A stretch of 61,027 nt of DNA, the filler included, from Streblomastix strix (taxonomy: Eukaryota), in NCBI GenBank assembly GCA_008636045.1. It is 4 parts of 4 records of this genome, joined end to end, with 100 filler letters (N's around TTAATTAATTAA, not from the genome) between each part and the next. Parts side by side here need not be neighbours in the genome. Positions count along the whole stretch, not along the records: positions 1 to 15,183 come from SNRW01001021.1; 3 more parts are not named here. The stretch is one strand, 5' to 3'. A program made the translations under genes and the position numbers. The notes beneath the pieces are model-generated. The model worked only from the letters and a program-made list of their open reading frames with translations. It ran no database searches and was not told where the DNA came from. Positions 1 to 26,879 of the stretch are shown here, piece after piece. Positions within the stretch are counted from its first letter, which is position 1, and the number at the start of each line of letters is the position of its first letter.

Positions 1-204
1 TTTTCTACTAAGAAGAAGTTTCTTAACTTAAAATTTATTAATATATTTAATGTTATAAATATTTGTTTTAATTTCATTATCAAATATTTAAGTTCCCAGA
101 AAACCACTATTTTGTGGAATTGATCAAAGTCGCACTCATATTATGACTTTTTTTTAGTTGTTCCATCATATATTCAAAAATAAAATAAAACTCTAGATGT
201 CTGT

Positions 205-1355
205 TGTGATGAGAATCGCCCATTTGGAAAATATATGTGCTTCTATTCTTATTATCTATGATTACTTATTGATGATTGTCATTTCATAATTGATGATATT
301 AAATGCGTTATAACATTCTCTAAACATATTTGTTTTGAATCATTCGTCAGAAAATTCATGTAATAACGTATCTAATCAAAGATTGAAAGAAGTGATAGTG
401 GAGAATAATTCAGTAAGATTACTATGAACAGCTCTTATGGAAGTCATGGTGTGAATCAAGAGCACTATTCAGATATTAAACTATGTGATATTCATGAAAC
501 ATTCAGGAAACATCTCAATGGTAGATTCAAAAGTTATCGTAAATTAGGAGATAACTTATACGCTGTTGAGTTTGAATAATAGAAATTTAATTACAAAACT
601 TGCTTATAAGTTGCATTTGCAGTATTTGATTGTGCCAAAATTTTTTTTATGAACTTCTATTATAATTTCTTAACTCGTATGGTTGATATGAATCGAGTTT
701 ATCTCACATATTGTGATACAAATTCTATGATGCTAGCAATTGCTGGAGAACCGAAATAAAATTATAGATAAAAATTCTCTGCATTAATTAAAGATAAAGA
801 ATTCTATGACTAAAATTTTTATAAGTTCTTCCTAAAACCTAATTCAATAATCTCTAAGGAAAGTTAACCAATATTAGATAAAATTGAGTGACTTGATGAA
901 AGAAAACTTAAAATAAAGGAATTGCAAATTAAAAATGAAAAGAAACCTTTAGGATTTGTAGATGAACATTGTGGTTCAAATCATATAGCTTTTACACCAA
1001 AGAATTATTGGTTAAGATAAGAATTTGATAAGAAAGATCCAATAGTTGTTAAACTTAAAGGAATGAGTTTAAAATTGAATCCATAAATCAATAAAGATGT
1101 TTATGAAAACAATATTAAAATGGAAAAATAGTTAAAGACACGAATACTTCGTTAAGATAGCGTTAGGAAAGGAATTCTGATGATGAAATATTTAGTAAGA
1201 TGAGTAAATTTAATACAACAAAGAATGGAATTACTGTAATTTATATTAAAATGATTATACTAGAAAATTAATGCTGTTGTCCGTATATTGATGGAATATC
1301 TGCTGATAAATACAAAATTTAATTTAAAATATTGATGCTTCCATAAGATCAATGA
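205..1355 (+). pseudogene. Protein-primed family B DNA polymerase (pPolB), C-terminal part
   Basis: Frame 1 contains KITMNSSYGSHG (motif B, ~415-450), YCDTNSMML (motif C with D->N, ~709-735), PKNYW and VKLKG. In-frame TGAs and a frameshift near 1120. Confidence 0.88.
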
Positions 1356-1408
1356 AAAAACAAATTATAAAAGGTAATTAATTTATTTTTGTTCATTAAA
1401 ATCCATTT

Positions 1409-1683
1409 ATGTAACACAATTTAAGTATTTGTTAGAGTAAAATTCCAGTATAAATACTTGATGACCTTCTTCAGACATTTGATTAAAATAAAAAATAGGT
1501 CAGAATCGCTGAATATTCTATGAAACTATCGATCTATTCATTTTAAAAATAATCTCGACGATTAAATCTTGAAGAATTTGTATATGGAATCAAAAATCAT
1601 GAAAATGATAACGAAACATAAGTCATTTTAGATAATGCTGATAAGATTCAATTTGGTGGTAAATCAATTGAAGAATGGCATGA
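1409..1683 (+). pseudogene. Small hypothetical viral ORF, frameshifted
   Basis: ATG after the TTATTTTTG motif, between pPolB and integrase; no recognisable motif. Confidence 0.35.
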
Positions 1684-2735
1684 AGATTTTCTTACGTAAG
1701 AGATGTAAAAGGGTAAAAATAGATAAAATATCAGATAAAATTTAAACATTTCTAATTAATAATTACCTCAACATATAAATTTTCCATTCAAATCCAAGGT
1801 GAAAACATATGAGTAAGTTCATGGAATAAAATTGAAGTAAAATAAAATTTCCCCTGCAATTGCAGTTCCTGATTATCAAATTAAATAACTCGATGAATAA
1901 TATGGACGACCATACTTCTCATATCATATTGGCTCATGGGAAATCGATATTGTTTTCTCGATGAATCCTGAATTGGTACGAATAAATTAAATTTACTTAT
2001 GCAGCATTAATATCAATACAAAATTTCTTGTAGTTTATAATTTATGTAGTAAATCATAAGATGAGGTTAGAAAAACTTTATATAATTTATTTCAATATCA
2101 GAATATAACTGATATTAGAGGAGATGATGAAAAACGATTTGTTAGTAATTATCTTATGCAATTTTATAAATCATTTGATATATAAACATATTTTGTAAAT
2201 GGATCTTAGGAATTTACTAATCACAATCGTATAGTTGATTCTGTAATAAGAACTATTAGAAATGCTTTTTGAATGGATGAGAGAGCGTTTGAAAATCTTA
2301 TATTGGTGTTATAAATGGTTGAAAGTTAATTATAATACTCCTTATAGTGCGTTTGAAAATTAATTTGTATCAAAATAAGCTAATGGATAATAAGAGCTTG
2401 AAAGGTATTTTATAAGAAAGAATGAAAAGATATTCAGATAAATTAATGCAAAATTATAAATGTCAGGACTATATATGTATATATATGGAAATATTATAGT
2501 GAATCATGTTGATAATTCAAAAAAATCATCGATTCATGAAGTAAAGAAGAAATTTCAATGAATTAGCAACGTTTTTAAGATGTATTATTGATTATATTGA
2601 ATGTCTATTATTAAAATCATTTGTTGATTTAGATAGAATTACAATTCCGATATATTATATTATATATCTGTGAAAATGAAGAATAATTAAATTCATCCGA
2701 ATTCAAATTATTTAAATAATTATTTAAATTTGAAA
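1680..2735 (+). pseudogene. rve-type (Polinton/Maverick) integrase
   Basis: RPYFSYHIGSWEID...ININTKFL...IRGDDEKRF...NHNRIVDSVIRTIRNAF; premature TGAs and frameshifts. Confidence 0.85.
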
Positions 2736-2795
2736 ATTATAAATATTTAAATTATTTTTTTTGTAAAATTTATTTTAATTATTTCCAAAAGAAAA

Positions 2796-3245
2796 ATGGA
2801 AAAGGAATAAATTTAATAAATTGTGCTTGAGACATTTGCGTCAGTTAAAAAAGTTTCCAAAATAATAAAATAAACAAAATAGATTAACATTCAAGAAATA
2901 ATTTCCGAAGAATAAATAAAATCCATCACATAACGTAGACAATTATGTAAATATTAATCAATAGAAGAAGTATTTGAAATAGCAAAGTAATAAAGAAAAG
3001 TATTAGCAATAATATTTACTTAATAAAATTTAAATTTCAGAAATTAAGCGTATGCATCTTAATTACATTTAATAAAATGATTATCAACAATAGTAACTAT
3101 AGATCCAGCTTAACTTGAAGTCATGCATAATATTCTAAATTTATCTGAGACTGTTTCAGAAAATCAAAGATTTGTTTTATCACCTTGTGATTCATTAGAT
3201 AAATGTTTAGAAAATCTATCTGTAACAGAAGAAAAATAAGAATGA
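2796..3245 (+). pseudogene. Small basic hypothetical viral protein
   Basis: MEKEQIQQ... ORF with one internal TGA; positional counterpart of the ORF at 24965. Confidence 0.5.
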
Positions 3246-3339
3246 AAATCGAAGATTTACATTAATACTTCGCATTTCTGAATTAATAATTAAATAATAA
3301 AATATGAAAATTATTTTTATCAAACAAATTCTGGATAAG

Positions 3340-4397
3340 TAATCTCTGCCACATTAAATAAGAAATTATTTTACATATCTCTTTCTAAAAGAATTTCATT
3401 TTAACTACTTGTGTTATTTCAGTTTCTTTTGATGTTGGTGCTTTAATTAATCTTCCACTTGGTTCATATTCAAATAAACTATCGAAATATGCTTTTGCCT
3501 CATCATTTATTTATTTATATTTAATTGGATCACTTTTATCTAACTCAGCCAAATCAACCTATGCATACGTATTTGCAATTTCAGGTTTAATGAAACTTGT
3601 CATCATTCTTTTAATGAAGTAATCTCTCCATATAACACTTGGAAAAATTATATAAGAATTTCTTTATTTATTATTAATATCTTCTCCAACTTCTTAAACT
3701 CTTTAAATTTTATGACCAAAACTTTTAAGAACTTTAACAACAACTTTTTTAAAATAATTCTATGGAGAAGCATATTTAATAGGTCTAATATTTTCATCTT
3801 ACCAAACTTTCATTGTTGTTCCTTTACGATCTTATTTTGTTGGATATTAATCTTCATTTCACATTGTCCAATATTTCTTTTTAGGAGCTGTCGTACGATA
3901 ACCAGCGACTGAATATAGTTTTTCATAACTATTCTTACAACTGCATCATTTAACGTAGATACATCGTTATCCAAATCTTCTGAAGCTGCTGTCCATCCTT
4001 TCTTATCCAATTTCTTTTCTTTCAGCCAATCTGCAGCACTTTAAAGATGAATAAGTCTAATAACTTTTTAAATGTCTCTATGAAGTTTGCCAGCAACAAA
4101 GTATCTTAATTATTTCATTTTTTCATCTACATCGGTACTTGGCCATAATCCAACTCTCCTTGATTTCTAATCCTACAATTGGTTAAATGCAGGTAAATCA
4201 GATTAAATTTATTTTCTTATTGGTGGCCTCTTAAGTAGTTTCAAATTATATGCATAACCCATTTTTTATCTAACAGCATCAATACTTTAAGGAACTGATC
4301 TTTCAATATCCATAAGACCTTAATAGTCTTAGAATGGTTATTCATCCCATGGCATATCATTAGAAGCTGGGCCTCATTGTTATGTTGGTGCTGTCAT
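3340..4397 (-). pseudogene. Conserved hypothetical viral protein (W...EDxDxD...VVR family)
   Basis: WLKEKKLDKKGWTAASEDLDNDVSTLNDAVVR resembles EWKGVEEDINGDKFPEFVVRD at ~31020-31080. Confidence 0.55.
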
Positions 4398-4493
4398 AGT
4401 TATTTTGATAGCTTTGCGTCAAAGATAAAACTTTGATTAAGTTCAATAATTATGAAGTGTTATTATAAATGAAATGTAAAAATCAAATTTAGA

Positions 4494-5160
4494 ATGAATC
4501 AGATAATTTTACCAGTAGATATGGATGTGAGTAATGAATAGAAAATAATAACTTTAACTTCATACACAAACACAAAATAATTAAATTAAAGTTAAATTTT
4601 AAGAATTATGTCACTGTCAAATTCGTCACCAAAATTTACAGCTTCAATACGTTCAACAATTGAAGTTGATTCACCATTTGAAAATGAATAATTACCTGTT
4701 GAATAGGTTTAAACACGAAAAGGATTATCTATATTTGAAGAAACAATTACGCCAGATCCATCTATTTGCAGATGATTACTTGATATTATAAGTGAAGATG
4801 AACATATGGCAAAAGAATCTGCTCATTTCATCTTATCAGGTCCTTAATTAGTAAGAGTAGTTGAAAATATATATGAAGTACTTGAAAGTTAAGTTGAAAT
4901 TATTGTTGAAGATGAAACTTGCTGTAGTAAATTCAGTTATGATGGTACAGAAACAATAACTGATATTGCAATTTCAAACGTAAACATCTTAACATTAGAT
5001 GTTGATAACGAAAATTTACTGAAAGATTCTTATAAAATATGTATGTAAAAAGTTAGACAAATTTCATCAATACTTGATTTAGGAGAAATTTCCTCAAGAA
5101 TAATGAGAACAATATCATCTGGATTAATGTAAGTTCTTTCTAAAGTATAAGCTTAATATA
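4494..5160 (+). pseudogene. Conserved hypothetical viral protein upstream of the fibre gene
   Basis: HFILSGPQL...VEIIVEDETCCSKF...ETITDIAISNVNI...DLG aligns by eye with 27538-28320 (DFILSSDNF...IEIVLEE...SCLSK...ETVRVIDVLIKNVSI...DLG). Confidence 0.6.
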
Positions 5161-5196
5161 TGTTAATTAATTTATTTTTGTTAGAAACATATAAAA

Positions 5197-7928
5197 ATGG
5201 ACGGGTACTTTCACATGTTAGATGTAGTTTTGTTACATGAGATATTATTTGGTTCTTAACGTTAAAATATTCATGGATTAGTTGAATAAGTTATATATTT
5301 CAATAATTGATTCAGTCATATTAATAATGTACATGCAACCGATCTTAGTAACTATTATACAAAACTTGAAGTTGATGATTTTATAAGAGAAACTACTATT
5401 GAAAATGTTGATTTGGTAAATTATTACAATAAACCCAAAACTTATGCTAAAACAGAAGTCGATGAATTACTTGATGATTACTATAGTAAAACTGAAACTT
5501 ATGCTAAAGTAAAAGTATATAATAAAACAGAAGTTGATGAATTTCTTGATGAAAAAGCTAATATTGGAACTTCATATTTTAAAACTGAAACAAATGAGTT
5601 ATTAAATAAAAAAGCTGATAAAACTGAAATTATTGATGCATACAGCAAAACAGAAACTGATTAGAAATTAGAATTGAAAGCTGATAAAACTGAAATAATT
5701 GATGCTTATAGTAAAAGTGAAGATGATGCGTAGTTATTATTGAAAGCTGACAAAACTGATTTTTATGAATATTACACATCTGGATAAGTAGAAGAATTTC
5801 TTGATGAGAAAGCTGGCAAAACATAACTGATTGATTCTTATTCAAAATCAAAAGATGTTGCATTGTTACTATTGAAAGCTGATAAAACTTGTTTAGATAA
5901 CTTTGTTGATCTAACAACCGCACAAACAATATCTGGTTAAAAATAATTCAGTGCAATATCAGTGTCAAGCATATCTAAATAGAGTAAAAATGATGAATAA
6001 ATATTATTAGCAGGTTGAGGTGATATGTTAGTAAGCACATTAGTGAATCAAACAGAATTATAAGAAGTTAGAGATACTGTTTAAGGAAAATCAAAAGGAT
6101 ATGTATTTGCAACATAGGAAGAATTGAATGATTGGATGGCTGTTCAAGATAATGTAGCAAACTTAGCTATTGATGATAATTTATATATCGTTGATAAGTA
6201 ATTTATAGATTATTGGTGGGATGGAACTTACTTAAAAAATTTTAGAAACAGAATTACCAGATATGAGTATTGTTGTTACTACATTATGTGCTGCAACTGG
6301 AAATTGAAATGCAATATCTGATATATCTATCGATGGAAATACAATAACACCTGCGAAATATTCTAAGTTTGTTACTACTGGATTTGTTCAATTGATTACT
6401 GGAATGAAGATTTTTACATGTACTATTATTTCTAATGGTATTCAATATTCTGGAAACGATAATAACTCTGTATTTCTTGCTTATGGAGGAGTGAAATCAA
6501 TATCTGATATAAATGCAAGTGTTGATTTGAGTAATTATTTTAATAAAATAAAGAACGGATGAATTATTAGATGATAAAGCTAATTCAGCAGATATAGCTA
6601 ATTATGTCACATTAGATACTTCATAAACAATAAATGCAAATAAGACATTTAGTAATAGTTGTAGATTCACAAGTATTATAGATGGAATGTCAACAATTAT
6701 TGGTGCATCATTTGTTAAATCAGGTGCTGATAATACCGTTGTTTTACTTGAATCTGGTGGTACCAAATCAATTTCTGACTTCAGTAGTTCAATTGATGAT
6801 TCGAGTTTTGTGAAGAAAACAGGATAAAATCTTTAAATTATTAGAGGAAATTAACGAAAAAGGGAATTTGAACCGGAAATGGACGAACAAAACATTTTAA
6901 AATAACGTTACTGCTAATAGATTCGTCAAATCTAGTGGAACAAATCAACAATTATTATTAACGAATGGTACTGTTAAATCACTTTCTGAATTCGGAAGTG
7001 GAAGTGTTGATGATTCGAATTATTTGAAGAAAACAGGATAAGCAACATAATCTATTAAAAGAAATTAATTAGAAGCGGAAGTATAGAATCATTTAGTGCA
7101 GCAAATATATCATAATATATGACTAAAGACTAAATTGCTGGAGGATGCGTACTTATAAATGACGGAGGAAATGTTAGTGGGAATATAGAAGCACCGGGGA
7201 ATATTATTTCTGCATGTTTTATTAATTCTGGTGGAGCAAATCAGCAAGTACTATTAGCAAATGGATCAACTAAGCCATTATCAGAGTTCAGTGGTGGAAT
7301 AGGTGCTATGAGTAATTATGTTTAAAAAATTGGAGCAGATGTTTAAGTTATTATTGGAATACCAAGAAAAGGAGAAGATGAGGAAGAAGAATCGGAAGAT
7401 GATGATGATTACATAACAAGAGGCGAATATAATAATAGTACAAATTAAATTACTAATATCTATTGTATGTGAAAAACAGGATAAAATACATAAAGCGAAA
7501 GAGATAGATAATTATATATTTATCCATTCGGTATCGAAGATGATGAATCACAAGAACTGACAGATACCGCTTATCTCACATGGAGTGAAACAAATTACGT
7601 TACTACTTCGAAGTTCTATAATTTCTATCAAGAAATAACTCCACCAGTAATGTTTTCTGGATTTACAGCATCATAATCCAGTTTAATAAAAATAAACAAT
7701 CAAATATATTTCTTTTATTTAGTTGTCAAGCTAGATAATATAATATAAGCTTATTAAGGTCGTAATATTTGAACGGTTAATCCCCCACCATTATTTACAC
7801 TATTTCATCTATTTAATAGTAATTATTTAGCTATGTTTACAGATGATGGATACGTACATTTCACTACGTATGCAGCAGTATGGACGTAAAACGATAATGT
7901 TGTAATTAATATATTTTGGGTAAGATGA
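5197..7928 (+). pseudogene. Tail-fibre/spike-like repeat protein
   Basis: Tandem YSKTE[TV]DxLLxxKADKT repeats (5350-5890), a YVFAT...DNLYIVD...DYWWDG segment and three FVKSGGTNQQLLLANGS-type repeats (6710-7290); frameshifted. Confidence 0.75.
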
Positions 7929-8000
7929 TCATGATTAAAATGAAATTTACATATAACAAACGAATTATGAATAAACTATTTTTGTTTGATCTCAAATGTA

Positions 8001-9576
8001 ATGAAAGTACATATTGACGAAGCTTTACTTGACGCAGCTGGACTAATGGATTTTCCGGAATTATATGCATATGTTAGAGAAAGAGAACCTAGACCACCTG
8101 TTGAAACTGCACCCCCTGTTCCAATTGAAGAATAAACATTATAAGAGTAAGTGAAGATTAATGCAGATATTCATGAAAATTCAAAAGAAGCATTCATATC
8201 ACCTGAACCAAATATGCCAGTAAAAATTGATTATGGATCATAAATTATAAATAAACTATTTGTATTTAATGAGATATCTCCATCATTAGCTGTTTATGGT
8301 GATAGAGTTACACTGAATTGCTTTGTAACTATTAAATATCAATTCAAAGGATTTGTTTTCAATTCATATCCTCAAGAGGCATAACCAAAAAATGATGCAG
8401 AAATAATTGCTGTAATCTGTAATAATTTCATTAATAGTATTAATTATTTCTGCTATAATAAAAAAAATGATCCATACGTTTATGTTGATTAAGATTAAGA
8501 GATATTTGTAGATACTTCATTAATATAATCAATTACATGTTATAAGTTATTTAAAGAACTTAAATAAATAAACGATGATTCAAATAGCGATGGTAAAGTT
8601 GATATCATGGATGTTTGGAAAGAACGAGGATAAAGTATTCAAGAAGCTTAATCTCATGCATATGCTGTAGTGAAAAAATAAATTGATTTAGTTGATCATC
8701 ATATAATAGAAATTAAGTTACACAATTTCTTGAATAATGATATTAAATTAAAAGATAAGTTAGGAATTTATAAACCTGATCGCGCAGCATATTATGTATA
8801 AGATGTACCATTTGGTACATATAGTTTCTGTAATAAATTAGTAGATAACGTAGGAAATATATATAAAATATTTTAAATAATTGATAGTAAAGTTTTGCCA
8901 ACTTATATTAAATATCTTTTCATGCATCCTGAGTAAAAAGAATATAGAGAAATATGCTACTAAGTTGAATCATTAGATAAATCAGCAGCATTTTAAGTTA
9001 GCATCTTCAGTAAATTAGACAAAAAAAGGTTGCGAATTCACTGGAGTGTATGTTTTAGATAATTATCAAAATATGAATGATGCAAATGAATCAAATGAAA
9101 ATAATGAAGGGTAATCTGAATCTGTAATAGATGAAGAGATAATTATATTAGATTAAAAACTTCAAACTCATTCGATATATGAATAAACTATTACTAATGA
9201 GATATGTTAATTGGATATTGTTTAAGGTTTCACATTAGGTTCTCCTCACAAATCATTTTATATTGTTGATGATGGCACTTGTAAAGTATGTGTGTTTAAT
9301 TTATTACTTGAAACTAAGGGATTCTACCAACAATATTAACCAGTTTCTTCAATTCCTGATGTATTAGTATCAGCAAAAAATAATTTGTTAGTATTTCCAG
9401 CATCAGCTATGGTAACTGTGGGAGATAAATATTAGACATTAACAATGGTATGTTATTTTATTACGAATGGTTCTACAAAATAATATTCATTTTCTGTTGA
9501 AGGAGCTGTAGTTATATCTCCTTCATCAACAGATATATAATATTATGGTGTTAACGGATTATATTACTTTGATTGA
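8001..9576 (+). pseudogene. Hypothetical viral structural protein(s) with a DxNxDGxVDxxD loop
   Basis: MKVHIDEALL... ORF block with beta-rich segments; DSNSDGKVDIMD at 8577-8612; may be two genes. Confidence 0.5.
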
Positions 9577-9639
9577 TTATATAAGTTAAAAGCAAATATT
9601 ATTTTTGTTTCATAGATACAAGATTATTAATCAAAAATA

Positions 9640-9964
9640 ATGGCTGTCGGCATATTCTCAAAACTCAAAGCACATGCTCAAAAAAATTGGTTACTGGTTA
9701 TCGTGCGTTTATGAAAAAGTAGTTAAGCCTTATGTATTATCAGTAACAAACTTCATTGCACCTGCACTTGGACCAGTTGTTAAAATGATTACTAAAGGAA
9801 TTAAATTAGGATCATCAGCAATTGATGTAATCGTAGGAAAAGGATCAAAATAAAAGGTGAAAGATAACTTTACTGACTTTAAGAACGATACATATGTTAA
9901 GTAGAATTTACCAATTGAATCATTAAGTCGAAGAATAAAACATGTTGGTTAACAATTTGTGTGA
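9640..9964 (+). pseudogene. Amphipathic-helix protein (adenovirus pVI-like) upstream of the major capsid gene
   Basis: MAVGIFSKLKAHAQK(fs)IGYWLSCVYEKVVKPYVLSVTNFIAPALGPVVKMITKGIKLG. Confidence 0.5.
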
Positions 9965-10053
9965 ACATCAAAATATAAATAGTAACTGATAGATTATTCA
10001 CATTTATGTGATTAATAACGAAGTTAATATTTTTATTCTTTCACAAATTAAGT

Positions 10054-11763
10054 ATGAATCGTTTTCTTGCAAAAACAATCTAAGTTCAAGGATTAAATAC
10101 AATTGAGTCATAACTTGAATTAAACGCGGTAGTTACATTCAATAATGACGGAGAACATGATTATTTCTCCAAAGAGATTAAACCCGAATCACAGATGCCA
10201 GCATTATTTGATAAAGAAATTATCATAAGTTTATCTGATAGTGATCATGATATAACTCAAATGTAAAATTCTTTCTTATCTATTTTGTTAACAGCTAATC
10301 TACAGTTTGATAAAAAGTTCGAATAATTTGATGGCTCATACAAGGATGGAGTTGTATTTTTTGTAGGATTGAAATCTGGAAGCAATATCATTCGAGAATA
10401 TACCGTATATCATCGTGGAAGAACTATTGATGGAAGCTTGCAAAATGATGCAACAACTGAATCATTCATCTATAACACCATTAAGCCAAAGTCAGAGAAA
10501 AATAATAGAAAACATATTCATTCATTATATGAAAATATCCATAAGTTCGATACTTCAGCATGTTGAACTTATATTGCAATGAGAGAGATTGAAGATGTTA
10601 TTGGATAATAAAAAAATGTACCTTACATGATGCATGTTAGATTCAGAATTTCAGTACCATTGGATGATTTGTTGATATTCTCATCTTTCACTGATTATCC
10701 CAACGGAATGTTTGGAGATCTTAAGGTTAAATTCAAGATTAATCCTAATGCATTTGTGTTTGCATAAGTTAATCCAACAGTATCTTTGGCAAAATATTAT
10801 ACAATGAATAAGGATGAATTACTAAGTTCAGGTTAATAGAAGTTGATGGATATTGGTTTATTCTTCCGTTATTGGAGCTTAACATTCTAATATACAAAAC
10901 AATTCACATAGCTTAGATGTACTGTTGATTTGATAACTAGCATAAGAACTGAATAACTTACTCCAAGTGGATTGAAGAATCTTGTTTGTGATATAACTCC
11001 AGTAACAGTTTCAATAAAGAATTACGTTGTTACTGAAGTAACTGCTAATATGGCTAGATATAAAGCAATTGATGTATGCTAAGCAAAAGTAAGAGATTTC
11101 TTCAGTACTCGAGCTTTTGTAGTTCAAGCATAGAGAGTTGAAATTTGGCCATTCCAAACATCAGCATCACTTTCTGGAATAAGAACTTCATAAAATATTT
11201 CTCTATCTTATGTTACAAATTATGTATTATTATTCCCTAAAGATGCTAGATGTACAATTTGCTTTGAGAATTCATGTTACTAAAATATGTAATTAACAAA
11301 TTATGGAAGAAACTCCAAAGATATGCCTATGAATGCCACTAATTAATAATTCTTCCAGTTATAACTCAATGCAAGTAATTTGGATCTATTATTTGAAGCA
11401 ACCTATGAATTTGAAGATGCTTTAACAACTCCTAGAAATACTGCAACAAGAAGACCTAATGCACATACGGATTTGACTTCTTTCATGATTTCGTTACAAT
11501 ATAAAAGAAATAGTAATGGCATATTAACTTTTGATGGACTAGACATTCAGAACTAAAATACTTCTATTGAACTTCGTTGAGCTCCAATTTATCAAGTAAT
11601 AACTGATTTTTATTATTATAATGTAGACACTAATGGAAAAAGACCTCCTCCACCAATTCTTTGTACAGTTCATGGTACTTTCCTGTTATTTAGTCCTAAT
11701 CAAGGATGTTCATGTCATAATGATTTAACACATTCATTAGACGAAGTTATTATAAGTGTTTGA
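10054..11763 (+). pseudogene. Major capsid protein (probably double jelly-roll)
   Basis: 570-codon single frame with two internal TGAs (10564, 11578). Beta-rich: FFVGLKSGSNIIREY...QNDATTESFIY, LLFPKD...CFEN, FDGLD, PPPILCTVH. Size and position fit a Maverick MCP; the fold is inferred. Confidence 0.72.
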
Positions 11764-11855
11764 AAACAAAGTTTATATGCGACAAGCGTCGCAGTCACAT
11801 GAAAACAAAATTAGTTATTAATGAAGTTTAATGTTATTTTTGCAATGAATGAAAC

Positions 11856-12278
11856 ATGATTGTAGAGCCAAATAAAAAAAATTTTATTATAACTCGTGAA
11901 CTTATTTAAATCTAAGATCGATCTTTCAAAAGAAGATTACCAACAGAATTTGTAAATTCATAGGATGAATGAGGAATAACAATCGTCTAATGCATAATTC
12001 CGAGGAAGATTAAAAAATATTATCATGATCTGTACTTATATGATGATCCTGATACAACTACAACTGAATAACGTAAAATTTATTTACATTCAACAATAGT
12101 ATAAGAAGAATAATATAATGACTATTATGTTTGAAAGTGTTATAAATAAAGAGCATCAAAAGTATTTCAATAAATGAATCAAATAACTTACATATACTTT
12201 TGGTTCAAAGGTAAAAATGGAAATTTACTTGATATAGGTCATATTGACTTTACATTGGAGTTACTGTTTGAATATTGA
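11856..12278 (+). pseudogene. Putative minor capsid protein (penton-like), 140 aa
   Basis: Directly follows the MCP; LPTEFVNS...KIYLHSTIV...DYYV...FWFKGKNGNLLDI...FTLELLFEY; two internal TGAs. Confidence 0.55.
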
Positions 12279-12378
12279 TTGTCATTATCACAGATAGTGT
12301 CTTCCAACAAAATTGGTTATGAAATGATAACTAATTATTTTTTTCATAATGAAACATTGCGACTCATTGTGACTCAAG

Positions 12379-12750
12379 ATGGATCGTTTCATTTTTGATT
12401 ATCGTTCTGGCAGTCGCACTAGGACTCCATTAAAGTCATCTGTTGAAATTTTTCCAGAAATATAACTTATGAAAAAATTTAATCAAGATCTCATAGTATT
12501 TGAGAATGTAACGCAATTCAAGTAATTTCTAACATTGAACAAGGGAGAATTGGGGAAAATGCCAACGTTGAAATTGAATAAGTAATATTAAATTAAAGAT
12601 GGTTATAGAATTACTAGATTGAAAGGATAAATATCTTTGTGATTTTAGCCAAAAGAATAGAAATTTGAAAGATAATCAGAAACCATTGATTAGATATAGA
12701 ATCTTGATCAAAGGTTAGAATGATTAATTGCTACTTTGTTAAGTAAAAAT
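12379..12750 (+). pseudogene. Hypothetical viral ORF
   Basis: Open frame under TAR=Gln with one TGA; no motif. Confidence 0.3.
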
Positions 12751-12779
12751 ATAATATCAGGTGTAGATTTGAATTTAAT

Positions 12780-13558
12780 TTTCAAGATATTTCTGATATT
12801 TGTAGTTCCATCTTCGTTATATTTAAATAACAGAGTATCTCTTTTAGCAAGTTATACATATTGATTCCATAATTCTTCTTTATCAATTGGAATTGATAAT
12901 TAATAGAAGAATAAATTGAATTTCTATCTATTAAATGCATCAAGGAAATAAATTGAATCCACATTTGACTTAATTGCTGCTTCCGATCCTATAATATCCT
13001 GTAAACATAAGAAATAGGTTATTTTTGGTTATCTATTCTTAAATAGTTTCTTGAAAAGTGGGCACATCTTATTTTTAAAAATTAACATTACATCATGGAA
13101 TAAAACAATGGTATGCGAAGATTTAATTTTGAAATCCGTCGCACCAACAGCATCAGGAATTTCTTTGCGGATGTTTCATCTAATTAATCTGTAAGATATT
13201 ATTCAATTATTTAATTATATATTTATATACATTCTATTAGATCATCAAGTGAAGTATCTGCTTATGAATATATTACTATTTTTGTTGGTATCTTAATTAA
13301 AATTTTCTTTTTCTTGTATGTTTAATCATTATTAGTGCCGGTTACATAGATAAATAAAGTATAGCAATGATTTTTTAATTAATTTAATTTAATTATTTCT
13401 TAGAAGACGTTGTAAGTCTTTCCACTATTACGTAATCCAATGAGTAAATTTATAGAATTGTATGTAAAATTTATCTCAGGATGAATGATAGACTACGTAT
13501 CATGATGATTTTTATTGATATTTTCTAAAAGTGAGTTAGCATGCTATTTTAATGACAT
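12780..13558 (-). pseudogene. A32/FtsK-HerA-like DNA packaging ATPase
   Basis: NSINLLIGLRNSGKT (Walker A, ~13415-13460), HTIVLFHD (degraded Walker B), KNRQPKITYFLCLQD (Arg/Gln sensor motif); frameshift near 13270. Confidence 0.85.
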
Positions 13559-13790
13559 TTCAACTTAAAATTCTTCGTAATAGTACTTTGCTATTACTTT
13601 AAAGAACTTATGAATCTAAAAATCATTAGTAAATTCGTTGATAAATAATCTAATAAATCAAATGATTTTTATTATTAATTTTATTTTTAAATTTTTTCTA
13701 AAAAATTTTTATTAAAATTTTTTCAATAATGAACTTTTTCATTTCAAAATTCATTTTAATTTTCTTCGAAAAACAGTCAAGAAAGAAAAT

Positions 13791-14488
13791 ATGACATCGA
13801 CATCAACATCGTATACAAAAATATTTGCAAACATATTCATCAATAATGAGTTTTAACTAAATGCAATCAGTTGCACTCGTAAATTTTATATGATTTCCCG
13901 TGAAAAGTTAGATGAATTAAACTATCTTATTAGGAAATCAGATATAATGAATATCAGTAATAAAAATCTTAATAATATTATTAAAAGAGCAATATATCTA
14001 GGAAATAGAGCAGATGATGATGATTAATCAGATAAATATAATTAAATTTATTAAGATATTGATATAAATATCTAATGTGCTAAATTTATTTTAAAAAATT
14101 TCCTGAAAATTAATTAAAATCAATTTGAAGTAATAATTTTCAGCAATAAAGATAAAGCATTGAATTAATTATTGGTTATTTATAATGTTCCTAATGATTT
14201 AAGTGAATAACTAGATGAATAAGATGGATTTCACGATGATATCAACATATCTATCTATATACCTAATGATTACCTAATGATTATGGTGTTCGTAATATAA
14301 ATCCTAATAAAATCAAAGATGAAACTATCAATCCTAATCCAAGTGATTAACTAAGATACTTTTAATACTATCGATTAAATGTTCCACTAGATGAGTAAGA
14401 TTTTGATTTTGGTGTTGATGAAATAGATTCATAAGGTGATATTGAAGATGAAGATTACATCGATTATGGTAATGATGGAGATGATTGA
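13791..14488 (+). pseudogene. Hypothetical viral protein with acidic C-terminus
   Basis: MTSTSTSYTKIF...DFDFGVDEIDSQGDIEDEDYIDYGNDGDD-TGA; one apparent frameshift. Confidence 0.45.
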
Positions 14489-14575
14489 ATAAATTAAAAA
14501 ATTTAATTAATATTTTTTAATTATTTTTTATTTGCCATTAATTTTATTATTTTTTCAGGTATTTTAATCATAATA

Positions 14576-14790
14576 TTTTTAGTAAATCAACGAGCGATGA
14601 ACTAGAGAAGACATCAAAACTGAGCTCTCACGACGCGAAATTTGGTTAATTTTTGCTTCACCAAGTACGAAACATGCTTAATTTTTGCTCTCACGAAGCT
14701 GAGTATGAGTAAAATGAGTTCTACCAAGTATGAAACATGCTTAATTTTACGTGTTCTTGAAATTTTAATTTATTGTTGATTTACTAAACT
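14576..14790. repeat. Subterminal repeat block of element A
   Basis: Inverted pair TTTAGTAAATCAAC (~14578) / GTTGATTTACTAAA (~14775) enclosing two ACCAAGTAyGAAACATGCTTAATTTT and two GCTCTCACGA direct repeats. Confidence 0.65.
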
Positions 14791-15183
14791 TGACGCTAAA
14801 AACCATGTCTACCAATTTGATGACTTCATTTTTGAAGTCTAATACGCAAATCGCTCATTGGCTTACGTAAGTTGATGAAAAAGTAGATGTTGGTACCGTG
14901 TCTGTCTTCTCTACATTATTGAATTATAACAAAAAATTAAACAGAAAATAAATATATAATTATATAATTATGTATAAATTATTAATAATTAGATAATCTA
15001 TGTACTTATTTAGTTATTAAGAAATTAACCTATATTTATAAATTGAATATAAGTAGAGTAGTTATGAGAATATGGAGAGTGCCCCACATAGAAAAATAAA
15101 ATAAATAATGTTAAATAAAATAATGATTATAAAATAATAATAATAAATAATGAAAATAAATAATTATAATAAAATAATGTAAA

Positions 15184-15283
15184 NNNNNNNNNNNNNNNNN
15201 NNNNNNNNNNNNNNNNNNNNNNNNNNNTTAATTAATTAANNNNNNNNNNNNNNNNNNNNNNNNNNNNNNNNNNNNNNNNNNNN
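15184..15283. other. Artificial contig spacer
   Basis: N44-TTAATTAATTAA-N44. Confidence 0.98.
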
Positions 15284-15638
15284 TTTTTCTATTAATTCCT
15301 TATAGATAATTCGCACAAAAATTTTATAATTCGCACTTCAAACATAACAAATTTAGAAAAATAATTTTTGTTTCTTAAATAAGTTATGAAAAACTTTAAT
15401 ACTTAATGTAAATATTTAAAGTTTATTATTATAAATTACTGTTAATACAATATCATACATAAAATTTTCAAAAATACAAAGTTTTTTTTTAGTTTTAAAA
15501 AAAATTGAAAAAATAGTTATTTTTTTGAAATTTAATCAAAAATTCTTTGATTTTTTACTTATAAAAGTGCGAATTAACTTAATTCGCACTCGCATTTTTT
15601 TCGCCGATGGTAGTGCGAATTAGCCGGATTTTACTGTA
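15284..15638. mobile_element. End of a Tc1/mariner-pogo-like DNA transposon
   Basis: Terminus ...GCGAATTAGCCGGATTTTACTG|TA (reverse complement TA|CAGTAAAATCC); AATTCGCAC repeats at ~15308, 15328, 15581 and inverted at 15567, 15613. Confidence 0.6.
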
Positions 15639-16660
15639 TTGTTTTGTTCTATCAAACAGCTTGAAGTCCTCCTGTTCCAGCTACTGCAACTTCCTGTGTT
15701 AGAGAGTAATAAATTCGGCATTTCAGATTTTTCATAATTTCAAACATTTCTTCCTGAAGAGTGAGACCAAGTTGTAGGAGGATAGTAGTCAGGTTTTTTG
15801 TTCCTTTTTGATAATCTCCTGCTTGTTCTAGTCTATTCTAAGCGCCAGCTTATCTATTATCCACTCTCTTAATATGCAATGCATGCAACATCAATCCCAT
15901 TTGCATTGCTTCGTAAAAGATTAATCTCATTGTTGTTGCCAGTTGGGCTACAGATGTTTTCCGTTATTGGTTAATTACAGCAACTTGGTTATCTGTCTAA
16001 ACAGTCAAGTGATCTTTATCTGCAAGTTATAGTATGAACTTTCTCAACGCTTATAGAATTGATCTCACATATCTCTAATTGCTGGATCTAAAACTCATTG
16101 GTTTCTTCCATGTCTAGGCTTGTAGTAATTCTGATTAACCCAGCTTCAGTACCGCTCCCCATCCAGTTCTACTAGCATCTGTTGTCAGAATTGCTATCTA
16201 TTGTATCTTTATTTGTAGTTATCGTGGATTATTTTGTGTTATTGTCGAGTACCATCAATAAAACTCTGATAAGATTGTATGCTTGAGTCGAAGAGTCGAA
16301 TCTCATCCTCACTAGTGAACTGCATTTTCATTTAAGCGATTCAACTTCTTTAGTTGAAATGATGCCTGTTGGAATTAAAATTTGAAGAACTGTAACTTTC
16401 CAATTAATTTTGCTAATTATCTAGTCTGAGCTTCCAGTCGTTATTGAATCTAATGAATGGGGAGGTTCAATTGATACAGCAGCTTAATCTCTCTATCTAG
16501 AGGCATCATAACAATCATTTCTTCCGAGTTCCAAATCCATCCAAGTTTACGTATTTCTTTGATTGGTTCAATCTCTGATTTCTAATTGTTAATTATCGAA
16601 ATGAAATCTTACAGTACATTCTTTATCAGTTAAGTTTCTTTACTAGATTCTTATAGATTT
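15639..16660 (-). pseudogene. DIRS-like retrotransposon fragment: RT C-terminus, RNase H and start of the methyltransferase-like domain
   Basis: INNQKSEIEPIKEIRKLGWIWNSEEM; ILTTDASRTGWGA...SSNQR...QTDNQVAV...HIKRVDN...RLEQAGDY; NLKCRIYYS. Confidence 0.85.
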
Positions 16661-18591
16661 TGATTGATTTTAACTCCATAAATTATAAAATATTTGAAAA
16701 TTCTTAGATTCAATAGAAATATTGATCTTATAATTATTATTTTGAAATTGATTTTGTTTTTTCTCAGTACTTTCCCATACTACTAAGTTGGGGTAAACCA
16801 ACTTTTGGATCCAACTGCCCCCAATATGTCCCGAACTTTTTAATAAATACCTTTGAAAATCCTAATATAAATGCCAATTGATTAAACAACTCATACTTAA
16901 ATTGAGTGGTTCAGCCCACAGACAACAATAACAATTTTTTATTTTAAAAAAAATTTACATTAATTATTTATTAAATAATTTTTTAAATAAAATCAGCGAA
17001 CAATTTTAAATTTGTAGCCGCTAGTACTCGAAAAATCGAACTAAATTTTTTTCTGTTGATTTTTTTTCATGGCAATATTTTTCAATTTACATTTATGAAA
17101 AATTTTTAAATAATTCATTTAAATATTTTTAAATAAAATAATAGTTAATGTTTAGTCTGGTCGGAATCATCCAATTAATAATTTTACATATATTACCTAA
17201 AAAAATTTCTCCCTTGGCCTTTCAGACTTTGTGATACTAATTTTTTTCAAATATGATACCTTCATTTTTTAAACTTATACCCCCAACTTTTTACAAACAT
17301 GCAACAAACTTTTCTTAACTGCAATGAGCTTTTTCCTAAAAGAAAACACTGTTTATTCTAATGAATTCATTTAAAATTTTTGCATGTATTCAATTTCTAT
17401 CAGAAAATAATATTTTTCTCCAGAATAATCATAAATAACATCTTAATCCCCAACCTCACAATAGCAAAATAAACAATAATCATCATCAAGCAATGACCAG
17501 CTCCAACTGATCTTCACTTAACTTCCTTTATAAGTATAAGAGCAGATTAGACTGTTATAACCGGTACAATAATAAGAATATTTAAGGTAGGTGTGGAATT
17601 AACAACAAAAAATATGCCTATTAAAATTCGTCAAACTTATTTCAAATGACGGACGATCTCGTCTAAGTTATTTTTATTTTTGACCAATCAATCATTTCGA
17701 CTCAATTTTCTTTTAAGATGTCCAGTTTAATTTGATGTGTAGATGCGTTTTCAATCATTGAAAAGCCAGAGCTATTGTTATTGAACTTGGAAGATATGAT
17801 GTATTTGATCCTAATAAAACAGGAATCTTTGTTGCACTTTTTATCAGATGAGCAGCAGGTGCACGAATATCTTCAACACAGTTTTTTGCTAATTCATCAA
17901 GTTCATTTGGAAATAATAATTTATTACTTTTAATTTATTATGAATTCAATTTTTTCATATTCATTCTTTTTAAGTGAAATGTTTTGTTTCAGAGCTATAA
18001 CTGTAATTTCAAATGTTGCCCTTTAGTTCCTTTCTAAGTTACTGCTGCTACTCGATATATCTACATATTCTAAAGCTTTTTTATCATCTTTTGCAATAAA
18101 TAAACAATTATTCAAATTATATAAAATTGTTTATGATAAAATAAATATTATTTTTAAAATATAATGTAAATAATGATTAATGTGATATTTAAATAAAAAT
18201 AAAATATATATATTATTGAAATATGCATTAATCATATAAGTACATTATTACTATTCGGTTGAATCATGAAAAACTTTTATTTGTAAAATAAAATTATCTT
18301 TTGTCAATTTCTACGAAATATAAATATTTTCAATGGAAAAATTTTAATTATTATAAATTTAAATATTATTCTATAAGAAATCTAAAAATATATTTGAAGA
18401 ATTGTTAAACTGTTTATATATTAATTATTTTTTTCAAATAAATATTTGTTATTTGATTCAAGTTTAGTAATTATTATTGGAATGATTTATTTATTATTTA
18501 TATAGTATTTATTATGCAAATTATTGACAATAATAAACGAAATATTTTGATTTGCGACCAGAATCTAAAAACCCATCTTTTTTCAGATATC

Positions 18592-19003
18592 AGTAGTATA
18601 GTCCCGCGAAACTTGCGCTCAAAACAGTTAAATTAACGGGTAAACTTATCCATTAAGGCCTCGAAAGCGTGGTAAAACAAAAGAAAAGAACTGATTCTTG
18701 AATAATTTGACCTTTGTCCCCACATTGCTTCGTCTCTCGCATGGGGTCACGACAGTGATTCATTTCTCCCCATAAAATAACGTGTTTCATCAATTTAGGC
18801 TTAATTTAGAGCAATCATGGTAGGAAATAATGTAAAAAAATATTACATAAATAATATACCCCCACGAAATAAATAAAAACAAGGTCAAATTATTCATAAA
18901 TCAGTTCTTTTCCTTTGTTTTACCACACTTTCGAGGCCTTAATGGATAAGTTTACCTATTAATTTAACTATTTTGAGCGCAAGTTTACCGGCACTATACT
19001 ACT
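18592..19003 (+). mobile_element. 412-bp MITE with ~130-bp TIRs and AGTAGT...ACTACT termini (copy 1)
   Basis: Starts AGTAGTATAGTCCCGCGAAACTTGCGCTCAAAA and ends TTTTGAGCGCAAGTTTACCGGCACTATACTACT. Confidence 0.85.
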
Positions 19004-19469
19004 CATATTATATAATATTTCTTGTTTAATGTGCATTATTTATTAAATCATATGGATTAAAGGAACCATATATTTGTGACTATGCTGTTGCCGACTTAAA
19101 TCCTAAAATTCCAGCGTTTGCTTCTGCTTATGTAATATATTAATCTCTTTACTGAACTGAATCTATTAATTACTATTTTTATATTTTTCCAAGTCTACTT
19201 TAAGCAAATTAATATTTTCCTAATTATTTTAAGATAATCGGTACTTTTTATATTTATTATGGTCTAACAACACTACCTCTAAATTAAAATGGTTACTTTA
19301 ATGTCATGAACTATTTTATATTCGCAACTTAAGGTAAAGTACTTTTTTTTCCTTTTTTTACCTTTTTTACCAACTTTTTTACGATACTATAAAATCTTTT
19401 ATTCATATTCTTACTATTCCTCTTTTTCAGACATTTTATTAATGTTAATTATAATTATAGTTATTAGCA

Positions 19470-19800
19470 AATGAGATACAATGTAATTCTTGATATTTTG
19501 ATAATCGCTTCAAGTATTTTATTGATATTTGCCTTGATGAATTGTTATTATTTTTCTAAATTAAAATAATAGCAAAAATTAGTGGAGAAGAATTTATGGT
19601 CTATTCAATGTTTCTAAATTAACTTATATCAGTAGCTATAAAGAATGATCCTGAGATAGAATTGAGATTTATACTAAGATAATACAATAAACGATTCAAG
19701 ATGGATTAACTAAAAGAAATTATTGAAATAGCTTAGGAAAATAGATAATCAGCAGTAATGCAATTGATATAATATTTAAATGAAAGAGTTTGTCTTTTAT
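19470..19800 (+). pseudogene. Small viral protein, EFMVYS/DPEIE family, with N-terminal hydrophobic segment
   Basis: EEFMVYSMFLNQLISVAIKNDPEIELRFILRQYNKRFKMDQLKEII; homologues at 26521 and ~37525. Confidence 0.6.
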
Positions 19801-19815
19801 TTTTGCTCTAATGAA

Positions 19816-20376
19816 ATGACTAATATTGGCTTATAAATTATCAACTCAGATTCAGATAAAGAATATGTAACATGGTAGACAACTATCCCTAGCGGTTGTT
19901 AAAGCTTTTAAGTTGATAGTATCAATAATATTCCAATTAATTTAACATATTATTTGAACAATGATTATATAGAAATATAGCATAATATAGTATCAACTAA
20001 TGATAGAAAAATATGTTATTAAAATCTAATCGTTGAGAATTAATTTGAATGTGTATTATTGGAAAAATTTCCACCAATTTGAATATGTTTGAATACTGCA
20101 ATTAATAACGCTTATACTAGTGATTAAACATAATAAAGATTTAAATTTTAACTTTTATTACTATATTAAACACTAACTACATTATATAGCTTTGCTGATT
20201 CAGCTAAGAAATATTTTAGACCATAATGAACTTTGAATATCAGGCTAATTTGCTTTAATAATATAATTAATGAACATGTACAAAAACTTTAAAATAATCT
20301 GTTCTCCTTAAACTACAATTTTGGATAAGATTTAGTGAATTCAGCAATCAATTACATTAACCATAGGATCGATGTA
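19816..20376 (+). pseudogene. 5' fragment of a long penton-like viral gene, truncated by MITE copy 2
   Basis: WQTTIP...FQVDSINNIPINLTYYLNNDYIEI closely matches the N-terminus of 22248-23690. Confidence 0.65.
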
Positions 20377-20787
20377 AGTAGTATAGTGTCGGGAAAGTTG
20401 CTTCATTTTAAGTTAAATTAATGGGTTTACTTATTATACTGGTCTCAAAAACGTGGTAAAACAAAGGAAAAGAACTAATTCTTGATTAATTTGACCTATG
20501 TTTTTATTTATTTCGTGGGGTATATTATTTCGAAATTATTTTATTGATTATTTCCTTCCATGTTTGTTCAAAATTAACATAAAATTAGTGAAACACGTTA
20601 TTTTATGGGGAGAAATGTATTATTGTCGTGATCCCAAGCCGTGAAACAAAAAATTGTGTGGACAAAGGTCAAATTAATCAAGAATCAGTTCTTTTCCTTT
20701 GTTTTATCGCATTTTTGAGGCCTTAATGGATAAGTTAGCCCATTAATTGAACTCTTTTGAGCGCAAAATTCGCGAGACTATACTACT
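20377..20787 (-). mobile_element. 411-bp MITE (copy 2, inverted relative to copy 1)
   Basis: AGTAGTATAGT...ACTATACTACT termini; the spacer is the reverse complement of that in copy 1. Confidence 0.85.
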
Positions 20788-20930
20788 TTCTCCCTGTATA
20801 ATATCTGACTGAAGTTAAAGCTATAATTAACTAAAAGATCAAACTCCTAACTAATATTGAAAAATAAAAGGTAGGTGCAAATTACTTTTTTTATTTTTAT
20901 TTTTATTTTTTTATTTGGATAACAGATAAT

Positions 20931-21590
20931 CTTCCTTGATCAATGTATAACAGATAAGGAATCAGCATAAAATAAGATGAACAGAGTTATCTATGAAAAA
21001 TAACGTTAAGGATATGAACCAATAATAGATTACCCCAGATATTTGATTAATGATTAATTAACTGTTTGGGACTCAAAATTAGATAGAAAAGTTAACCCTT
21101 AATCAATGAAAACTAGAAGCGGTGGACTTATAGATAGATAAATTAGATTGAACGATACCAACGGAAAACGTTGTGATTTGTCATTCAGTTATCTCGTAGC
21201 TAAATAATTTATACCAAATGATGATATTAATAAAAATAAAATATTCCACTTAGATAATGATCTCGAGAATGATGCAGTCGATAACTTATTATGGATGGAT
21301 TAATTTAACTATAATAGATATAATAAAAAATAAACACAATTAAATAAGATCTAAAGATGAAATGAAAAATAAAAAAATTAACCGATTTGTTTGAGTATAA
21401 AAATAGAATATTAGGTGATTTCTACGTATTAGATGAAACACAAAATTTACAGTTTAACAATCTCGATAATGATACTTATATGTAGCTAAAAACAAATGAT
21501 AATGGCAAAGGTAATTTATATGTTAACGTATATGATAATAATAAGGTTGAGTTTAAATTGTATATCGAAACATTAATGAAACAATTTTGA
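20931..21590 (+). pseudogene. NUMOD4/HNH endonuclease-like protein
   Basis: YEPIIDYPRYLIN...LVAKQFIPNDDINKNKIFHLDNDLENDAVDNLLW; internal TGAs. Confidence 0.7.
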
Positions 21591-21655
21591 AAATTATTTT
21601 TTTGGTGCAAATATCATTTTTTATTTTTATTTTTATTTTTTAATCTGGTTAATAA

Positions 21656-22225
21656 ATGTAATAATTTACTACTCTTATTGTTGAGCCAACTTACGAGATT
21701 ACTACCGAGTATCCGTGGATAATTAGACGAATATCAGATAAATTTATACCAAAGTTATCGACTGAAAAATGCGGTTATTAATAAGTTGGTTTGAATGGTA
21801 CAACTTATGGTATCCACATATTAGTCGCCATTTAATTTATTCCAACTGATTACCGAAATAAATAGGTAGATCATTAAAATATTAATTGTTCGGATAATTA
21901 AATCAAAAATTTATGCAAGTTATCTGCAAATGAAAATTGTTTAAATAGAACCAAGCCCAATAGAACAAAAATAGAATAAATATTTGTTGATTCATTACTG
22001 GAAGATAAAATAACTATTACCGAATATGGGAAACATAAATTTGAAGGTCTATATTTTGTAACTAGTAAAGATAAATGTTATAAATATAATGGTTCATAAT
22101 ATAAATAATTACTTGTTAATGAAAAATTAAATGGTGCCCTATTTGTTTATGCTGCTGATAGGAATGTTAAATGTCATTAGATACGTTACATCAGAGTTAA
22201 ACATTTGTTTAAAGTGGAAAATTGA
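21656..22225 (+). CDS. HNH endonuclease, 189 aa (open frame, some motif residues degenerate)
   Basis: YEITTEYPWIIRR...GYQQVGLNG...HILVAIQFIP...VDHQNINCSDNQIKNL...NENCLNR; ATG to TGA uninterrupted. Confidence 0.8.
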
Positions 22226-22247
22226 TTAAAATTATTTTTGTAAGTAA

Positions 22248-23690: not shown

Positions 23691-23883
23691 TCTACCTACT
23701 AAATTTTATCCCATTAATTAATGAATAAATTAATTAACAAATTTTTTTCAATATTTTTCGTTGGTGCAATCTGCCTTCTATCAAACTGAAATTAGAGCTA
23801 AAATTAGCCATTGGGAGATGGTGGAATTAACCACTACAAATTGATATCGGTCGAAATTCGGCTAACAAATTTATTTTTATTAA

Positions 23884-24941: not shown

Positions 24942-24964
24942 ATCTTTTATTTTTAAACCAAACC

Positions 24965-25270: not shown

Positions 25271-25279
25271 TTATTTTTA

Positions 25280-26502: not shown

Positions 26503-26520
26503 ATTTATTTATCATATAAA

Positions 26521-26748: not shown

Positions 26749-26879
26749 AAAGGCAAATTGCACCAACGAAATAAATTTCAAAAATTTAAGTATATAATTT
26801 TAACCAAAATATATTTATCTTTATATGAGAACATGCACTTCTTAGATAATATGAACATTTAACAAAAATAATAATTTTG

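Follow-up and report, generated by a model that had tools for sequence, protein, structure and literature searches.

The closest described relatives of the element analyzed here are the endogenous viral elements (EVEs) of its own host, Streblomastix strix, an oxymonad of the termite gut in which TAA and TAG (TAR) encode glutamine (Bellas et al. 2023, PMC10120064). In that study, 820 major capsid protein (MCP) hits from S. strix formed one cluster in a Metamonada group, the EVEs made up ∼11% of the genome by the authors' estimate and used the host translation table, and five S. strix loci were drawn in Dataset S1. We analyzed a stretch of 61,027 nt from the S. strix assembly GCA_008636045.1 (the window), in which four contigs are joined by N spacers (15184-15283, 30467-30566 and 45748-45847), and concentrated on the first contig, SNRW01001021.1 (1-15183; GC content 21-30%). 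This contig very probably carries one member of a Maverick/Polinton-like virus family that is present in many copies and written in the host TAR=Gln code; the copy is truncated, riddled with mutations and likely an integrated fossil.

The window element shares host, MCP family and TAR=Gln code with the EVEs of Bellas et al. 2023 (PMC10120064), with membership in the S. strix MCP cluster judged by eye against their Table S3. One entry of that table, EZS28_010462, starts like our paralogue P0017 (again by eye; P-numbers denote S. strix paralogue proteins) and has a Foldseek match to Sputnik (3j26_A, E 2.6e-12). The headline, Polinton-like S. strix EVEs that use TAR=Gln, was therefore already published in 2023, and the novelty that an initial annotation of this DNA had claimed for a code-adapted lineage does not hold, since the shared code is stated there. 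The accessible text of that paper holds no gene-by-gene account of the S. strix element, although this locus may be among those in its maps and tables; the present analysis adds a map of the genes, a penton candidate of 140 aa, a protein-primed family B polymerase (pPolB) with an HNH domain and signs of a younger subfamily. Literature searches on Streblomastix Polintons or endogenous viruses turned up PMC10120064 alone, and those on oxymonad Mavericks returned unrelated papers only.

The Mavericks/Polintons of Trichomonas vaginalis share with the S. strix family pPolB, an rve integrase, an ATPase, a double jelly-roll MCP and high copy number, and a T. vaginalis contig matches an S. strix MCP at 32% identity over 527 aa (E 1e-70; Table S5 of PMC10120064). 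In contrast, the TAR=Gln code is a feature of S. strix, and the Pfam family DUF4106, the T. vaginalis MCP family according to Bellas et al. 2023 (PMC10120064), was matched by none of the 82 members of our MCP alignment A3. Animal Group 1 Maverick-Polintons and adintoviruses (Polintoviricetes) likewise share pPolB, the rve integrase and the double jelly-roll morphogenetic module, but their MCPs are 9-11% identical to the S. strix MCP, and no cysteine protease was seen here in a crude scan of an element whose left part is gone. A 2026 classification left the Metamonada elements ungrouped (bioRxiv 10.64898/2026.06.19.733378); a gene order is now available for this group that it could not place.

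The major capsid gene and its predicted fold

The MCP gene lies at 10054..11763 on the plus strand. Translation with table 6 recovered exactly the 570-codon capsid gene (stop included) described initially, interrupted by in-frame TGAs at 10564 and 11578, and its product is 87% identical to and colinear with an intact 570-aa paralogue, P0002. Searched with its C-terminal half, the MCP retrieved 266 proteins among 1159 candidates, of which at least 120, all of the matches listed, are named Streblomastix strix, in line with a multi-copy family. Among these matches, 119 other S. strix proteins are 52-86% identical to the window MCP, and 32 of 120 paralogues align nearly without gaps over at least 480 residues. 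The best match is the window's own NCBI gene model, in which an upstream pVI-like open reading frame (ORF) is spliced onto the MCP; NCBI thus already holds these proteins among its S. strix gene models, contrary to the claim that the element is invisible to standard ORF calling. Profile searches reached 545 representatives at E≤0.001. A PDB sequence search with the MCP profile gave one unrelated match (E 0.5), and two IMG/VR scans for MCP relatives gave 169 pattern matches with none confirmed and no matches, respectively.

Structure prediction used P0002, a natural full-length paralogue, instead of a multi-copy consensus, with an 82-sequence alignment. The predicted fold (predicted local distance difference test, pLDDT, 90.6; predicted template modelling score 0.90) had as its top Foldseek matches the iridovirus MCP (E 3e-14) and Sputnik (9e-14), followed by PBCV-1 and mavirus (4e-12), and an adintovirus capsid protein came first in a structural search of BFVD (E 2e-15). 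VIA-align gave Z scores of 20.2 to PBCV-1 (root-mean-square deviation 4.2 Å, 341 aligned residues), 17.0 to the mavirus MCP and 11-14 to adenovirus hexons. The window gene is thus predicted, through its intact paralogue, to encode a double jelly-roll protein, as had been proposed for it; at 5-11% identity, the modelled fold match does not assign the family to a group.

Polymerase, integrase and ATPase

The C-terminal part of pPolB occupies 229..1353 (plus strand) and is 73-81% identical to the paralogues P0301 and P0343. PF03175 falls just below its cut-off in the window (E 8e-6) and above it in both paralogues, and in P0343 the polymerase motifs A-C are accompanied by exonuclease motifs and by an insertion of the HNH/endonuclease VII type, so that the protein-primed family B polymerase of Maverick/Polintons is represented in the family. 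The window segment matches residues ∼955-1324 of the 1324-aa P0343; the last ∼28% is kept and ∼72% is gone. Because bases 1-228 show no significant match to pPolB, the gene was cut at a junction inside the contig rather than by the contig end. A PDB sequence search with P0343 found no match. The HNH insertion, absent from the window and seen in the paralogues only (P0301, P0302 and P0343), matches PHROG 1035 (E 1e-11) and more weakly Pfam HNH (E 0.05-0.08). Jeong et al. (bioRxiv 10.1101/2023.08.22.554363) describe an HNH domain in pPolB2 as a feature unique to the Polintons of oomycetes and nematodes; the S. strix paralogues share this feature, which does not imply a common origin.

The rve-type integrase at 1352..2660 (plus strand; 3′ end approximate) is broken by a TGA at 2270 and by frame changes near 2330 and 2520. 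It is 68% identical to the integrase part of P0302, a protein that joins pPolB to the integrase, and the rve match stays under the Pfam cut-off in both (E 0.017 in the window, 0.002 in P0302) with the catalytic core aligned, by which we recognize the integrase of Maverick/Polintons. The third catalytic position is D in the window (2230-2270), in P0302 and in a further integrase at 24450-24500 of the window; rve integrases usually have E at this third acidic position.

A P-loop ATPase with a Walker A motif, likely the packaging ATPase, is encoded at 12708..13558 on the minus strand and has a frame change between ∼13250 and 13175. Its Pfam matches, AAA_14 (E 0.006) and ATPase_2, are all below the cut-offs, and we take its motif order to be plausible for FtsK-HerA. 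The one apparent IMG/VR match (L009), over 19 residues, was dismissed as a chance match. pPolB, the integrase and the double jelly-roll MCP bear out the initially reported Polinton/Maverick identity, and this candidate packaging ATPase fits it. Upstream of the ATPase, at 13615-13618, relatives in two sequencing runs (X1 and X3, of the four runs X1-X4 compared) carry a 39-base insertion that is missing from the window copy. Contig 3 starts (30567-31441) with a paralogous ATPase C-terminus (30571-30726; 53-54% identity), after which comes an ORF of weak similarity to the one at 3121-4355; this is a family variant with a different gene order.

Penton candidate, pVI-like and fibre-like genes

The penton (minor capsid) candidate at 11856..12278 (plus strand; 140 aa) contains two in-frame TGAs. 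One S. strix paralogue of the same 140-aa length, of three candidates, is 65% identical, and a standard-code homologue lies directly 3′ of the MCP (E 2e-9) in L001, one of eight loci from a metagenome scan (L001-L008). The nearest named clusters of this candidate in the Atlas carry V18-19 (19% of members) and DUF5901 (12%), with a score of 0.93; V18-19 is the Sputnik minor capsid protein. A PDB sequence search with the penton profile gave six unrelated matches (E 0.3-1.9).

The ORF at 9640..9964 (plus strand; frame change near 9670-9684) adjoins the MCP and encodes a small basic amphipathic-helix protein, which we take to be pVI/PX-like. Its hydrophobic moment is 0.57, compared with 0.56-0.61 in paralogues, 0.74 in the L002 homologue and 0.35-0.48 in ten MCP windows. 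Homologues lie near the MCP in L002 and L003, and the paralogue P0196 matches that of L002 at 30.5% identity over 59 aa (E 2e-5). Literature searches on pVI or amphipathic proteins of Polintons and adenovirus returned no match. In L002, a standard-code relative, a free-standing HNH gene (901-1527, minus strand) stands between the pVI-like ORF and the MCP.

The fibre-like gene at 5215..7900 (plus strand; ends approximate) is in several pieces and comprises N-terminal KADKT-type repeats followed by four related beta-repeat units. Its homologue in L007 (E 7e-6) in turn matches PHROG families of tail fibre and minor tail proteins (E 8e-7 to 2e-5). The initial gene labels thus stand for pPolB, the integrase and the MCP, whereas A32, penton, pVI and fibre are assigned by context and motifs, without a family-level match. 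As first reported, no adenain-type protease was recognized: a crude pattern scan of the window, which lacks the left part of the element, found no protease motif, and there was no Pfam or PHROG match.

Use of the host genetic code

With the standard code, no ATG-initiated ORF of at least 80 aa exists within positions 1-20000 of the window. Two arguments for TAR=Gln were set aside. The longest TGA-free run of the contig under table 6 is 369 codons, and 30 base shuffles yield 286-904, so that table-6 ORF length was rejected as evidence; TGA at gene ends was not counted because it is true by construction under this table. Since open table-6 frames alone match shuffled sequence, the code reading rests on homology. 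TAR codons 286, 360 and 413 of the MCP fall on columns that hold Gln in 66, 60 and 42 of 68 distant relatives, respectively, which together with the lack of standard-code ORFs supports the claim that the genes are readable only with TAA/TAG as Gln. Of the Gln codons in 11 in-frame viral stretches, 118 of 158 are TAR, compared with 320 of 387 in four in-frame host stretches (one of 12 viral and two of six host stretches were dropped as out of frame, and three of the four host stretches kept are unverified ORFs). A host control for this count was a P-type ATPase gene at 46370-50795 (E1-E2_ATPase, E 2e-45), which is spread over several frames and probably contains introns.

Comparison of the window MCP with the TAR-coded locus L008 over 387 codons gave a proportion of synonymous differences (pS) of 0.78, with synonymous sites saturated, and a nonsynonymous proportion (pN) of 0.17, and TAR and CAR were exchanged at 8 of 15 shared Gln codons. 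TAR=Gln was thus already used when purifying selection acted on the capsid gene, as expected of the host-code-adapted lineage proposed initially. The usage did not arise through decay: recoding took place under purifying selection rather than by drift after insertion. The MCP, penton candidate and pPolB C-terminus need no introns because they are colinear with their homologues; the description of the block as intronless is borne out for these three.

Copies, gene order and relatives

Fifteen other database proteins join the MCP to a neighboring gene (17 of 267 matched, and the window's own model and one off-target protein were dropped): the pVI-like ORF in six, the part of the upstream gene from 8001 in seven, its part from 9073 in six and the fibre in two. 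These fusions are apparently mis-spliced gene models, and the five looked up are from S. strix. Over window positions 1-14600, X1, X2 and X3 cover 30 of 30 bins and X4 covers 27; X2 is a separate study, and X1 may be the source sample. Single X3 contigs link the MCP end to the ATPase (record 19), the pPolB end to the integrase (record 16) and the integrase end to an ORF at 4494 (record 17), and X4 record 22 bridges the 9073 part to the MCP. The order of the genes thus recurs piecewise in other copies, in agreement with their proposed co-occurrence.

Seven of the eight metagenome loci (L001-L007) are open in the standard code and are 39-43% identical to P0002 and 38-100% to P0123; the five of these in which the MCP end lies inside the contig terminate at TAA. 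In a midpoint-rooted FastTree phylogeny of 50 MCPs, built from 14 S. strix sequences and 36 of the 68 distant MCPs, those from S. strix group together in a single clade (support 1.0). L008 holds a TAR-coded, lesion-free MCP fragment and, in the standard code, part of a GH92 glycosidase gene (E 1e-22), the two lying at 705-1079 (minus strand) and 1923-3083 (plus strand), and is likely a chimeric contig.

Lesions, probable decay and a possible element end

All seven hallmark genes carry stops or frameshifts in the window copy, so that it lacks the intact core genes of an active virus. The first TGA of the MCP hits a column that is invariant in 68 of 68 relatives. At conserved MCP columns the window departs from the consensus at 20 of 236, compared with 2-31 (median 8.5) in the 32 paralogues, whose counts are biased low because they define these columns; in a comparison with the independent L008, the window departs at 10 of 174 columns and L008 at one. 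The initial annotation had called the element near-complete, which does not hold: ∼72% of pPolB and the left end are gone, no terminal inverted repeat (TIR) or target site duplication (TSD) was found and the seven hallmark genes are broken. It is likely that the window copy no longer makes virus.

A possible right end is a GC-richer stretch of 310 bp at 14601..14913 (no strand assigned; GC 0.345, compared with 0.13-0.17 on both sides) that contains short direct repeats and is bounded by an inverted 10-mer, with very AT-rich DNA beyond. An 11-base inverted match was reached by 26 of 500 base shuffles. This stretch may be the element terminus or a miniature inverted-repeat transposable element. 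Integration of the window copy is suggested by its decay and by the copy number of the family.

Proposed life cycle and alternative explanations

In intact members, the integrase would insert the linear genome into host DNA and, after excision, the protein-primed polymerase would copy it from the termini. MCP trimers, the minimal penton and the fibre would build a particle that the ATPase fills, and the amphipathic pVI-like protein may help this particle across a membrane. All genes would depend on host ribosomes and Gln tRNAs that read UAR. With TAR at about three quarters of Gln codons, we would expect no expression in a standard-code cell. The lineage likely came from a standard-code ancestor, with a single acquisition of TAR=Gln that preceded its diversification in S. 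strix. The window copy then probably lost its left part and decayed after insertion.

Several observations weigh against this reading. Both the ATPase and the integrase stay below Pfam cut-offs, family searches gave no Pox_A32 match for the ATPase and no pVI family match for the pVI-like ORF, and the model of the penton candidate, for which a single jelly-roll would be expected, is uninformative (pLDDT 44), with no Foldseek match at E≤0.001. No TIR pair was found in 1-14940, where the left end is absent, nor was a TSD found, and no host gene was identified on the contig. The whole gene set was found on no other single contig among the listed pieces of the four runs. Stops in such EVEs are often assembly artefacts (Bellas et al. 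2023, PMC10120064), and chimera-like contigs such as L008 occur in the assembly. Finally, we infer the direction of recoding from a tree in which the midpoint root is limiting.

One alternative concerns the life cycle of the family and is compatible with its Maverick/Polinton-like identity: the elements could be self-synthesizing transposons without infectious virions, in which the capsid genes are mere passengers or serve solely inside the cell. In favor of it, no maturation protease was recognized in a simple pattern scan of this copy, which lacks the left part of the element. However, the MCP has been under strong purifying selection between subfamilies whose synonymous sites are saturated, 32 of its 120 paralogues are the nearly gap-free ones described above, and fibre-, penton- and pVI-like genes are kept beside the MCP in both codes. 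We consider this alternative unlikely. The virion-forming capacity proposed initially may accordingly be retained for the family, for which purifying selection on the MCP and full-length copies speak, but not for the window copy.

A second explanation is that the element is intact in the cell and that its stops, frameshifts and left junction arose by amplification or by assembly from collapsed similar copies. In other protists such stops vanished on polishing (Bellas et al. 2023, PMC10120064). At the first MCP stop, every contig counted has a different base, the depth of relatives far exceeds that of the exact-match contigs, and the joining of a TAR-coded MCP to a GH92 fragment in L008 indicates that chimera-like contigs exist. 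Nonetheless, independently assembled X1 contigs are identical to the window over 364-391 bases at 6622-7012, 8721-9084 and 11001-11376; the second bridges the frame change near 9022 and the third holds seven of the conserved-column departures of the MCP. Because the match is exact, this frame change and these departures exist in reads, with the reservation that X1 is perhaps the source sample and amplification errors are still possible. Moreover, a collapsed consensus would tend to drop private changes rather than add them. We therefore regard an artefactual origin of the lesions as improbable.

That the contig instead belongs to a free virus outside the host genome, infecting S. strix or a different TAR=Gln protist of the sample, is very improbable: it would fit the lack of a host gene or TSD on the contig and the single variants that reach a contig depth of ∼3,700-3,900 in X1, but a replicating virus could not carry seven broken hallmark genes, exact-match contigs of the window copy have a depth of only 12-22 and paralogues sit on contigs of up to 57 kb.

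With a decayed, probably integrated copy as the preferred reading, the locus is one among several hundred, and its value is as an annotation anchor. Hints of a younger subfamily come from an MCP cluster of 91 members at 90% identity, a 565-aa MCP that is identical at two tags of one contig, the nearly lesion-free L008 and the deep single variants in X1, where depth does not equal copy number. On this basis we put forward, tentatively and as less likely than its opposite, that a live virion-forming subfamily persists in S. strix, code-locked to its host after one recoding from a standard-code ancestor with descendants in other microbiomes, and equipped with a 140-aa minimal penton, no maturation protease, a D-D-D integrase and an HNH-bearing pPolB of 1,300 aa. 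If so, the genetic code would act as a natural firewall that limits which hosts a eukaryotic DNA virus can use, and the subfamily would offer a template, at the level of genes, for the still unplaced Metamonada group. Standard-code sister lineages at ∼40% MCP identity make a code change as host confinement of a eukaryotic DNA virus testable, and it is worth following whether the younger subfamily is still active and code-confined to S. strix.

Remaining genes and other elements in the window

Five further features were mapped on the contig. On the minus strand, ORFs at 3810-4355 and 3121-3813 (3121..4355 in all) may be one frameshifted gene and are covered by relatives in the sequencing runs; their similarity to the contig-3 ORF is weak, with scores reached by 2 of 300 and 14 of 300 shuffles. 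The others are on the plus strand. A conserved ORF with one in-frame TGA lies at 4494..5240; on contig 2, the fibre-like gene is likewise preceded by a distant homologue of this ORF (E 0.003). The gene of ∼525 codons at 8001..9576 contains the frame change near 9022, across which P0078, P0163 and P0217 align; its product, which has no Pfam or PHROG family, is likely structural. A small basic ORF of 87 aa at 12379..12642 is unbroken and is spanned by X3 record 19, and an acidic ORF at 13791..14510, with a frame change near 14285, is covered by relatives in X1 and X2.

Contig 2 carries a second, divergent table-6 mobile element (21551-29359) with an HNH endonuclease (21551-22225), an integrase (23887-24941; 40-41% identical to P0302) and, ahead of a fibre-like ORF (28154-29359), a counterpart of the 4494 ORF (27991-28221). 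MCP profiles A3 and A4 found no capsid gene on this contig, and the element may have a different MCP or none. The same contig contains long inverted and direct duplications (18587-20787 and 19906-22420; 105-155 nt, 76-91%) and a motif of ∼42 nt that occurs at 26744, 29444 and 29621 and, in inverted orientation, near 23740; these are either rearranged copies or amplification chimeras. Elsewhere in the window, a weak match to a Tc5 transposase DNA-binding domain (E 0.003) lies at 33710-34858, and the RNase H of a decayed reverse-transcriptase element (RT_RNaseH, E 7e-5) lies at 15652-16254 on the minus strand.

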